Positions 26,317-29,286 of a stretch of 64,000 nucleotides of DNA are shown one piece after another. This DNA is from Escherichia coli (GTDB taxonomy: Bacteria; Pseudomonadota; Gammaproteobacteria; Enterobacterales; Enterobacteriaceae), in the NCBI RefSeq assembly GCF_030013595.1, contig NZ_CP122768.1. The stretch is one strand, 5' to 3'. Under the pieces are notes generated by a model. That model made no database searches. It was not told the origin of the DNA and saw only the letters and a program-made list of their open reading frames with translations. Position 1 is the first letter of the stretch. Every line of letters begins with the position of its first letter. The translations under genes were made by a program, and so were the position numbers.

Positions 26317-26389
26317 AAAAAGGCCACTCGTGAGTGGCCAAAATTTCATCTCTGAATTCAGGGATGATGATAACAAATGCGCGTCTTTC
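26317..26389 (-). ncRNA. micA: MicA (SraD) Hfq-dependent sRNA with intrinsic terminator
   Basis: Minus strand reads GAAAGACGCGCATTTGTTATCATCATCCCTGAATTCAGAGATGAAATTTTGGCCACTCACGAGTGGCCTTTTT, matching MicA as I recall it; located between gshA and luxS. Confidence 0.85.
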
Positions 26390-26457: not shown

Positions 26458-26973
26458 ATGCCGTTGTTAGATAGCTTCACAGTCGATCATACCCGGATGG
26501 AAGCGCCTGCAGTTCGGGTGGCGAAAACAATGAACACCCCGCATGGCGACGCAATCACCGTGTTCGATCTGCGCTTCTGCGTGCCGAACAAAGAAGTGAT
26601 GCCAGAAAGAGGGATCCATACCCTGGAGCACCTGTTTGCTGGTTTTATGCGTAACCATCTTAACGGTAATGGCGTAGAGATTATCGATATCTCGCCAATG
26701 GGCTGCCGCACCGGTTTTTATATGAGTCTGATTGGTACGCCAGATGAGCAGCGTGTCGCTGATGCCTGGAAAGCGGCAATGGAGGACGTGCTGAAAGTGC
26801 AGGATCAGAATCAGATCCCGGAACTGAACGTCTACCAGTGTGGCACTTACCAGATGCACTCGTTGCAGGAAGCGCAGGATATTGCGCGTAGCATTCTGGA
26901 ACGTGACGTACGCATCAACAGCAACGAAGAGCTGGCGCTACCGAAAGAGAAGTTGCAGGAACTGCACATCTAG
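26458..26973 (+). CDS. luxS: S-ribosylhomocysteine lyase (AI-2 synthase)
   Basis: 171 aa; HxxEH metal motif (HTLEHL). Confidence 0.95.
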
Positions 26974-26999
26974 TCAGTAAACTATCTTCACAATTAATT

Positions 27000-27024
27000 G
27001 AATAAATATCCTCCGGCATAGCCG
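27000..27024 (+). terminator. Rho-independent terminator of luxS
   Basis: CCTCCGGC-ata-GCCGGAGG hairpin followed by TTTTT. Confidence 0.7.
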
Positions 27025-27029
27025 GAGGT

Positions 27030-27708
27030 TTTTCAAATGCGCCTATAAGGCTCTCTTACCAGCCGCGCCCTAACAGGCGCACACGATCTGACATTTGCAT
27101 CCAACTTCGTTACTTACGGCCCGTAAACGGGCTGCCCGGATAGGGAATCGATAACTGATCTCCCATTTTATCCTCTTCAAGCTGGTGCTTTATGTAATCC
27201 TGTATCTTCGCCGTGTTCTTACCCACTGTATCGACGTAGTACCCTCTGCACCAGAACTCCCTGTTCCTGTATTTGAATTTCAAATCACCAAACTGCTCGT
27301 AAAGCATCAGACTGCTTTTCCCTTTCAGATATCCCATAAACCCGGATACGCTCATTTTGGGCGGGATCTCCACAAGCATATGGATATGATCTGCACAGCA
27401 TTCAGCTTCCAGAATCCGTACGCTTTTCCACTCACACAGCTTTCTCAAAATACTGCCTATTGCTCTACGCTTCTCTCTGTAGAACACCTGTCTTCGGTAT
27501 TTTGGCGCAAAAACTATGTGATATTTACAGTTCCATCGGGTGTGCGCTAAGCTCTTTTCGTTCCCCATTGGGACCCCCTTTTGATTTCTTGTTTGACACT
27601 TGCAGTTGCCAGACCGCAAGGTGTTTTAACAAATCAAAAGGGGTTTTAATAACTGGCTCAAAGCTGAAAGCTTTCCGGAACCCCCAGCCTAGCTGGGGGT
27701 TTTCTGTG
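27030..27708 (-). mobile_element. IS200-family insertion sequence (IS200/IS605 family); ends approximate
   Basis: HUH tnpA ORF; left end (high coordinates) has two hairpins typical of IS200: cccccagc..gctggggg terminator-like hairpin and a long stem-loop occluding the tnpA RBS; lies between convergent luxS and emrB terminators. Confidence 0.8.
27110..27568 (-). CDS. tnpA: IS200 transposase TnpA (HUH single-strand transposase)
   Basis: 152 aa from MGNEKSLAHTRWNCKYHIVFAPKYRRQ; HxH motif (HIHMLV) and catalytic Tyr (RGYYVDT). Confidence 0.9.
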   Translation of the reverse strand: MGNEKSLAHTRWNCKYHIVFAPKYRRQVFYREKRRAIGSILRKLCEWKSVRILEAECCADHIHMLVEIPPKMSVSGFMGYLKGKSSLMLYEQFGDLKFKYRNREFWCRGYYVDTVGKNTAKIQDYIKHQLEEDKMGDQLSIPYPGSPFTGRK

Positions 27709-27711
27709 CAC

Positions 27712-27738
27712 AAAAAAGCCAGTTCAAATGAACTGGCT
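27712..27738 (-). terminator. Rho-independent terminator of emrRAB
   Basis: Minus-strand hairpin GCCAGTTCA-ttt-GAACTGGC followed by TTTTTT, immediately after emrB stop. Confidence 0.7.
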
Positions 27739-27747
27739 TAGTTGTAC

Positions 27748-29286
27748 TTAGTGCGCACCACCTCCGCCGCCACCTGCGCCAAATGGCGGTTTAGCAAACC
27801 ACACCAGCCCCAGCAGGACGAGGAATATCCCGGCTGACATCCAGAAGATCTCATTGGCGGAAATTATCAGCCCCTGATTGGTGATCTGCTGGGCAATCCA
27901 GCCTGATGCCTGCTGTTGCGTCATTCCCAGTCCTTCCAGTTGACTGTACATCGCCTGGGCATTCGGGTTGAACGGGTTTACCGACTCGGTTAACTGTGCG
28001 TGGTGCATCGACTCGCGGTTGGTCCACATGGTGGTGGTGATGGATGTGCCGATAGACCCCGCCAGCGTTCGCGTAAAGTTAGAGAGGCTCGATGCCGCCG
28101 CCAGTCGTTCCGGTGGCAAACCAGACAGCGTAATGGTGGTCAGCGGCATAAAGAAGCAGGCCACCGCAAAACCCTGGATAAACTGCGGCCAGGCCGACGC
28201 GCCAAAATCCATACCTGGTTCAAAGGTATAGGCACGCCAGTAGAAGCAGACGGCATACATAATAAAGCTGAAGGTTACCAGCCGCCGCATATCCAGTTTA
28301 TGCGCGAAGCGGCCGATAATCGGCGACAGGATCACCGGAATAATCCCTACCGGCGCAGAGGCCAGACCTGCCCACGTTGCCGTGTAACCGTAGACCTCCT
28401 GCAACAACTGCGGCAGCAGAACAATCGCGCCGAAGTAGAGCATATACGCGAGGCTGATACACAAGCAGCCGATGGTGAAGTTGCGCGACTTAAACAACGA
28501 CAGATCGACTATCGGGTTATCGTCGGTCAGCTCCCAGACAATCAGGAAGCAGATAGCCACCACCGCCACCACGGTGAGGATGATAATTTCCTGTGATGAG
28601 AACCAGTCCAGCTCTTTACCGCGGTCGAGCATAATCTGCAGGCTGCCGATACCAATAACCAGCAGTGCCAGCCCCACGGCATCAATCCGCCGCCGTTCGG
28701 TGCGGGTTTCACGTCCGCGCAGAGTTTGCAGTGTCATCAACACCACCGCCACGCCAATCGGCACGTTGATGAAGAATATCCAGCCCCAGTGGTAATTATC
28801 GCTGATATAACCGCCGAGGATCGGGCCGCAAATTGGCGCGACAATCACCGTCATCGACCACAACGCCAGTGCGATCGAGCGTTTGGCTGGTGGGTAGTTA
28901 TTCAGCAATAGACTTTGCGAAAGCGGAATTAACGGCCCGGCGACAATCCCCTGAATCACGCGGAAGAAGATCAGCATATTCAGGCTGCTGGAGACACCAC
29001 ACGCCCACGACGCAATAGCAAAGGCGATGGTGGACCAGAGGAACAGTTTCACTTCCCCGACGCGCTTTGCCAGCCAGCCGGTAAGCGGGATCGAGATGGC
29101 ATTCGCCACCCCGAAAGAAGTGATTACCCACGTTCCCTGGCTGAGCGATGAGCCCAGATTCCCGGCGATAGTGGGGATCGCCACGTTAGCAATGGTGGAG
29201 TCCAGCACCTGCATGAATGTCGCCAGTGACAGCGCAATCGTCATAATGACCAGTTGCGCGCCTTCCAGCGGTTTTTGCTGTTGCAT
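27748..29286 (-). CDS. emrB: Multidrug efflux MFS permease EmrB (14-TMS DHA2 family)
   Basis: 512 aa from MQQQKPLEGAQLVIMTIALS; C-terminal poly-Gly tail. Confidence 0.95.
   Translation of the reverse strand: MQQQKPLEGAQLVIMTIALSLATFMQVLDSTIANVAIPTIAGNLGSSLSQGTWVITSFGVANAISIPLTGWLAKRVGEVKLFLWSTIAFAIASWACGVSSSLNMLIFFRVIQGIVAGPLIPLSQSLLLNNYPPAKRSIALALWSMTVIVAPICGPILGGYISDNYHWGWIFFINVPIGVAVVLMTLQTLRGRETRTERRRIDAVGLALLVIGIGSLQIMLDRGKELDWFSSQEIIILTVVAVVAICFLIVWELTDDNPIVDLSLFKSRNFTIGCLCISLAYMLYFGAIVLLPQLLQEVYGYTATWAGLASAPVGIIPVILSPIIGRFAHKLDMRRLVTFSFIMYAVCFYWRAYTFEPGMDFGASAWPQFIQGFAVACFFMPLTTITLSGLPPERLAAASSLSNFTRTLAGSIGTSITTTMWTNRESMHHAQLTESVNPFNPNAQAMYSQLEGLGMTQQQASGWIAQQITNQGLIISANEIFWMSAGIFLVLLGLVWFAKPPFGAGGGGGGAH

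Follow-up and report, generated by a model that had tools for sequence, protein, structure and literature searches.

Several features that keep IS200 silent have been described, namely a terminator in the left end of the element, a buried Shine-Dalgarno sequence and the antisense RNA art200 (PMC4513863, PMC5435999). The published element has its terminator hairpin at nt 12-34 and the stem-loop holding the Shine-Dalgarno sequence at nt 69-138 (PMC4513863), and the left-end hairpin is reported to act as a two-way terminator and to stop about 85% of upstream transcripts (PMC5435999). Regarding the sites at which such elements lie, a 2025-26 preprint found by statistical means that terminator-like sequences are enriched upstream of IS200/IS605 elements (10.1101/2025.07.22.666184), and IS1541 has been reported between pheL and pheA in Yersinia, i.e. 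just after the attenuator (PMC3082878). In our literature search, the targeting of host terminators by IS200 was not the subject of any explicit experimental account; the search returned only this statistical preprint and the pheL/pheA report.

Here, we describe a related insertion in Escherichia coli. The window, by which we mean the whole 64,000-nucleotide stretch of DNA that was analysed, contains the convergent genes luxS (plus strand) and emrB (minus strand) with a transposase gene, tnpA, between them. The locus comprises the following genes and the element itself:

26318-26389, minus strand: MicA sRNA gene (Rfam RF00078, 83.9 bits against a gathering score of 41; also annotated there in K-12)
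26458-26973, plus strand: luxS (Pfam LuxS, E=1.6e-59; RefSeq annotation of a near-identical locus)
27001-27711, minus strand: whole IS200C element (711 bp, from the empty-site alignment; other IS200C copies match across 27001-27717)
27110-27568, minus strand: tnpA, stop codon included, encoding a 152-aa Y1 HUH transposase (Pfam PF01797, RefSeq annotation)
27748-29286, minus strand: emrB (Pfam MFS_1, E=4.3e-55; RefSeq annotation of a near-identical locus)

The ends of the element were set by gapless alignment against the empty site of strain AR_0162, relative to which the window has 711 extra bases. The empty site reads ...AATTAATTG|AAAAAAGCCAGTTCAAATGAACTGGCTT..., with the bar marking the insertion point, and the empty spacer between the luxS and emrB stop codons measures 63 bp in both AR_0162 and K-12 MG1655. 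Owing to flanking A's, the ends are ambiguous by 2 bp, with an alternative extent up to 27003-27713. Comparison of the filled with the empty site shows a clean 711-bp insertion in which the two A's at the left junction could belong either to the IS or to a 2-bp repeat of the A-run, and the insertion likely produced no target-site duplication. The termini, GTGCAC... and ...TTTATT, are not inverted repeats; instead, a hairpin lies near each end. A 30-nt pattern covering the left end occurs once in the window, with 0 chance matches expected. tnpA is the only family-matching ORF within the 711-bp insert; tnpB is absent, and the size fits the IS200 group (~0.7 kb).

The protein encoded by tnpA matches Pfam PF01797 (Y1_Tnp, 'Transposase IS200 like') with E=3.9e-38 over profile positions 2-121 of 121, and the domain spans residues 11-129. 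Its HUH motif, DHIHM, aligns with DHIHL of the Sulfolobus TnpA structures (2EC2, 2F4F), and the segment around the catalytic tyrosine, qdYIkhQ, aligns with kkYIeeQ of the same structures. Matches to solved transposases also include those of IS608 (2A6M, 4.3e-19) and ISDra2 (2XM3, 1.9e-16). RefSeq labels the tnpA ORF of a near-identical locus 'IS200/IS605-like element IS200C family transposase'. One private SNP is present at position 27158, where the window has A and the pig-isolate locus described below, strain MCJCHV-1 and six other loci have C. This SNP causes the substitution E137D, a conservative change in the C-terminal tail of TnpA, beyond the Pfam domain.

Taken as a whole, the locus is very probably best explained as an intact IS200C element of the IS200 group, IS200/IS605 family, occupying 711 bp of the minus strand at 27001-27711. 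It is a known element that public genomes already have annotated at this site. An original prediction, made from the letters of the window alone, had placed a complete-looking IS200 in the luxS-emrB spacer, near MicA, and several of its claims hold. The Y1_Tnp match (3.9e-38) and an Rfam STnc490 match of 146.4 bits are far beyond chance, MicA lies nearby at 26318-26389, and K-12 MG1655 indeed has no IS in its 63-bp spacer. The structure alignment revealed no loss of the predicted HUH and tyrosine motifs, and the comparison with the empty site defined both that site and the IS ends, the inserted 711 bp being missing from the reference empty-site strains.

The left end of the element carries the RNA structures expected from the published IS200:

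27560-27649, plus strand: putative feature placed from the literature, with coordinates transferred from the Salmonella description (PMC4513863)
27575-27643, minus strand: stem-loop of the tnpA 5'UTR (fold -37.2 kcal/mol, z=-5.1) in which the Shine-Dalgarno sequence is buried; IS nt ~69-137, within the STnc490 match
27578-27701, minus strand: match to STnc490 (Rfam RF01405) along the whole model, positions 1-124 of 124, with 146.4 bits against a gathering score of 56 (E=2.5e-31)
27679-27701, no strand assigned: left-end hairpin AACCCCCAGC-TAG-GCTGGGGGTT (fold -18.7 kcal/mol, z=-3.0)

The left-end hairpin lies at IS nt ~11-33 and shares a common design with its right-end counterpart, an 8-bp GC-rich stem closed by a 3-nt loop. 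By analogy with the family, it is predicted to serve also as the left TnpA-binding hairpin. The STnc490 match and the folds agree with the two characteristic left-end hairpins of the original prediction, and the literature likewise describes IS200 as nearly silent and seldom transposing (PMC4513863, PMC5435999). The combination of left-end terminator, buried ribosome-binding site and a putative art200 would be consistent with a silent tnpA here. In this arrangement, tnpA would stay almost silent because transcripts derived from emrB would be halted at the host terminator and then at the left-end terminator of the IS. As a separate observation, the RF01405 match at 27578-27701 lies on the tnpA-sense strand, whereas published work presents STnc490/art200 as the antisense RNA of the tnpA 5'UTR (PMC4513863); the seed of the Rfam model may have been taken from the other strand, or may represent the 5'UTR.

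We then considered how the element came to this site. IS200C is found at a coverage of at least 80% in 2,063 of 5,426 complete E. coli genomes, and 89 of the 5,426 carry it at the identical luxS-emrB nucleotide. Two of these 89 carriers, both isolated from UK pigs, have a 99.9% match to the window, and the other 87 match it at 97.9%. MCJCHV-1, which we take to be an ST1193 strain, belongs to the latter group. Its insertion point is identical to that of the window, and the flanks of the two differ at 31/1,801 and 46/1,889 positions (1.7-2.4%), their IS alleles at 8/711 positions (1.1%). The insertion had been put forward as a strain-specific marker; its presence in 89/5,426 genomes, in two lineages with flanks ~2% apart and different IS200C alleles, contradicts this view. 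Since the site is occupied in at least two lineages, the luxS-emrB insertion can be used as a lineage marker only with care.

Further comparisons bear on the number of insertion events. The IS200C of the window is one SNP away from mutually identical copies at six other loci in six other E. coli strains, and the MCJCHV-1 allele shares 99.9% identity with a copy that strain NU14 carries at another coordinate. Each allele therefore resembles a different circulating pool. Judging from these sequences, the locus most likely records two separate insertions of different IS200C alleles into a favoured site, in two E. coli lineages. The identity of copies at different loci also indicates that IS200C has moved, and appears to point to recent movement.

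The strongest competitor is that an old insertion occurred once, was passed on by descent or through recombination and was excised precisely in most lineages, which we consider unlikely while still giving it appreciable weight. IS200/IS605 elements excise precisely; the insertion point is the same in 89/89 genomes, and the divergence of the IS (8/711) is of the same order as that of the flanks (31/1801, 46/1889). However, one ancestral copy does not sit well with a window allele one SNP from the six-locus copies and a second allele at 99.9% identity to the NU14 copy. Furthermore, the nearest empty-site genomes match the window flanks at 99.5% and are thus closer to the window than the second carrier group (97.9%), and IS200C generally targets terminators like that of emrB/luxS. 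Gene conversion between copies is another alternative to two independent insertions, given that the divergence of the IS and that of the flanks are not far apart (1.1% against 1.7-2.4%).

Two other explanations concern the state of the copy, and both are much less probable than the intact element that we prefer. According to the first, the host retains the copy chiefly as a locus for regulatory RNAs, the 5'tnpA and art200 sRNAs, as proposed for Salmonella, where the 5'tnpA of IS200 regulates invF and virulence regulons (PMC5435999, PMC12594629). The full conservation of the 5'UTR structure fits such a role. Yet tnpA and both ends are intact too, the identity of copies at different loci points to recent movement, and most E. 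coli genomes have no copy between luxS and emrB, so that we regard this reading as improbable. A dead relic, which looks complete and cannot move, is equally hard to credit. Transposition of IS200 is notoriously rare (PMC4513863), and the C-terminal tail of TnpA carries the private E137D; against this, the full-length ORF retains its catalytic motifs, neither the end hairpins nor the flanking T-run are damaged, a single SNP separates the sequence from copies at six different loci, and E137D is conservative and falls outside the Pfam domain (residues 11-129).

The intact element described above abuts the following structures at its two junctions:

27010-27028, minus strand: IS200 right-end hairpin CCTCCGGC-TAT-GCCGGAGG (ending 9 nt short of the IS right end; folds at -15.9 kcal/mol with z=-3.9)
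27712-27717, minus strand: host T6 run (AAAAAA on the plus strand), the U-tract of the emrB terminator; abuts the IS left end and is present in the empty site
27716-27739, no strand assigned: native two-way terminator hairpin GCCAGTTCAAATGAACTGGC of luxS and emrB; host DNA and the sole hairpin in the 63-bp empty spacer

Empty sites lack the hairpin at 27010-27028 (CCTCCGGCATAGCCGGAGG), and IS200C copies at unrelated loci have it; because it accompanies the element to these loci, it belongs to the IS right end. In a terminator scan, it is terminator-like on both strands, and on the plus strand it has a canonical terminator shape of 8 pairs, 7 of them G-C, followed by TTTTT. The native hairpin at 27716-27739 is likewise terminator-like on both strands, with a strong T6 tract in the emrB direction only and a weak tail, TTAGTTGT, in the luxS direction. 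That the IS, as the original prediction had it, extends over 27030-27745 and is flanked by undisturbed native terminators, one of luxS (27010-27028) and one of emrB, can hardly be correct: both hairpins are terminator-like in a simple scan, but the empty sites of AR_0162 and K-12 have one hairpin in the 63-bp spacer and lack the one at 27010-27028, which is also found with IS200C at unrelated loci.

The extent 27030-27745 is about 30 bp off at each end when set against the 27001-27711 of the empty-site alignment, in that it omits the right-end hairpin (27010-27028) and takes in the host terminator hairpin (27716-27739). Nor does the element lie between two terminator hairpins, as only one hairpin, a two-way terminator, is present in the empty spacer, and the second one belongs to the right end of the IS. 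The statement that neither terminator was disrupted stands for emrB, whose hairpin and T6 are untouched, and fails for luxS, which is separated by 711 bp from its native hairpin. Because the IS lies directly after the T6 run, the emrB terminator (hairpin plus T6) is intact. This run, 27712-27717, is likely the target or left cleavage site of IS200C.

On the luxS side, the native hairpin is now 711 bp away, and 37 nt separate the luxS stop codon from the IS right-end hairpin with its TTTTT. Judged by these positions, luxS transcripts now probably terminate at the IS right-end hairpin; read-through, if any, would run antisense across tnpA and into two further hairpins. luxS is the AI-2 synthase gene, and the practical consequence of its 3' end probably having been exchanged for an IS-derived terminator is modest. 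The insertion would also give the strain a further source of the IS200 5'UTR and antisense RNAs. Two further Rfam candidates were rejected, namely a Ysr202 match with 29 bits against a gathering score of 315, which covers the IS right-end hairpin only, and an ncr1175 match with 26 bits against 60. We also noted that, in the filled site, the minus strand of window positions 27706-27747 permits a pairing of the first IS bases, GUGC, and the two final U's of the emrB U-tract with GUACAA, which lies upstream of the terminator hairpin. In the folding model, this pairing extends the predicted emrB terminator stem to -24 kcal/mol; it may be a coincidence, but could alter the U-tract of the terminator.

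The position after a terminator recurs at other copies. At the six other E. coli IS200C loci, which lie downstream of pheP, htpX, tkt and kdsA, upstream of gatY and, in one case, at a site with no flanking annotation within 150 bp, the element follows directly after a host hairpin plus T6-8 (6/6), and tnpA is co-oriented with the upstream gene wherever one is annotated. A scan of GTDB with one genome per species, restricted to the exact left-end hairpin and with E. coli and Salmonella not included, returned at least 120 loci at which this hairpin pattern is kept across many taxa; the listed loci come from Yersinia pestis (IS1541), Vibrio, Brenneria, Mailhella, Oxalobacter, Bacillota MAGs and others. 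Among the matches listed there are 118 unique left flanks, and in 93 of them (79%) a terminator-like hairpin ends 4-12 nt before the IS. Of random 50-mers from these loci, 70 of 5,000 (1.4%) pass this hairpin test, as do 277 of 2,915 other runs of at least five T's in these loci (9.5%). A T-run occupies positions -1 to -6 in most of the 118 listed copies, and one is present at the six other E. coli loci as well. Given the 79% found at insertions against 9.5% at other T-runs, the T-run alone is insufficient to explain the placement.

If IS200 is taken, by analogy, to transpose by single-strand 'peel and paste' and to use guide pairing, the ends of the element suggest how such sites might be selected. 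The A-rich bases 5' of the IS hairpins, GAAAA at the left end and GAAAAA at the right end, would pair with the T-rich cleavage sites, TTTTTT at the left flank and TTTATT at the right end, as in IS608. A terminator hairpin followed by a T-run would also resemble the right end of IS200C itself, and this likeness could underlie the usual target choice. The resemblance is imperfect, with a hairpin-to-junction distance of ~4-7 nt at targets against 9 nt at the IS right end. By this analogy, we infer that the luxS-emrB position would reflect the usual target choice of IS200C. The broader proposal, that transposases of the IS200 group actively choose intrinsic terminators, whose GC hairpin and T-run they would recognise in single-stranded DNA by the likeness to the right end of the element itself, is tentative, and we place it somewhat short of an even chance. 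Alternatively, the hairpin bias could be due to selection, with harmless post-terminator insertions surviving, and not to a preference of the transposase.

Should the transposase actively choose terminators, specific ones such as that of emrB/luxS would be recurrent hot spots, hit independently across lineages, and the IS could replace the terminator of a neighbouring gene with its own right-end hairpin. The almost constant placement of IS200-group elements right after a terminator hairpin and T-run helps to explain their silence and harmlessness. This terminator-seeking habit, which has been partly described already, is the sole part of the present analysis that we consider worth following.

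Not all E. coli genomes have either the 63-bp spacer or the IS between luxS and emrB. About 1,000 of 5,423 genomes carry instead a ~2.1-kb segment with two genes, an example of which is the following:

L125:7574-9685: two-gene segment of E. coli O18:H1 CFSAN067215, corresponding to the window spacer 26979-27747

The first gene of this islet encodes a 370-aa ATP-binding protein that has an AAA_33 kinase domain and matches HD weakly, and the second is a frameshifted 'RNA ligase family' gene, so that the islet looks like an RNA-repair-type pair. PADLOC gave no match for the ATP-binding protein. The emrB terminator hairpin differs in islet-bearing genomes.

Among known elements, IS200C of E. coli and IS200 of Salmonella are alike in having tnpA as their only gene, and in the left-end terminator hairpin, the Shine-Dalgarno stem-loop and the right-end hairpin. 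The Salmonella element is quoted at 707 bp, against 711 bp in our empty-site comparison, with end definitions that differ by a few T/A bases. The window copy differs from other IS200C in its private E137D. IS1541 of Y. pestis and Y. pseudotuberculosis has an exact 22-nt match to the left-end hairpin and the same right-end hairpin, CCTCCGGCTATGCCGGAGGATATTTATT, and is placed like IS200C, after a host hairpin plus T-run. It differs in the first 12 nt, GTGCCCAG against GTGCACAG, and in Yersinia its copy number is much higher and tandem copies occur. In Y. pestis NCTC5923, for example, tandem IS1541 copies are arranged such that the left end abuts the right-end hairpin CCTCCGGCTATGCCGGAGGATATTTATT of the previous copy (L078, L079, L081), which suggests that the right end of IS1541 itself acts as an insertion target.

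The exact 22-nt left-end hairpin CCCCCAGCTAGGCTGGGGGTTC was also seen in very distant phyla, mostly at contig ends and with differing first 12 nt (L004-L075). The carriers are MAGs of Oxalobacter, Peptococcaceae, Bacillota, Mailhella, Desulfovibrio, Saccharibacteria and Elusimicrobiaceae, and the conservation of the hairpin across these taxa is striking.

IS608 of Helicobacter pylori and ISDra2 share with IS200C a Y1 HUH transposase, a hairpin near each end and the lack of terminal inverted repeats. As with IS200C, a short specific sequence abuts the left end of each, and insertion takes place 3' of it. In contrast to IS200C, both carry tnpB, and their targets are TTAC and TTGAT, respectively, whereas IS200C has no tnpB and is flanked by a T-run that usually follows a terminator hairpin.
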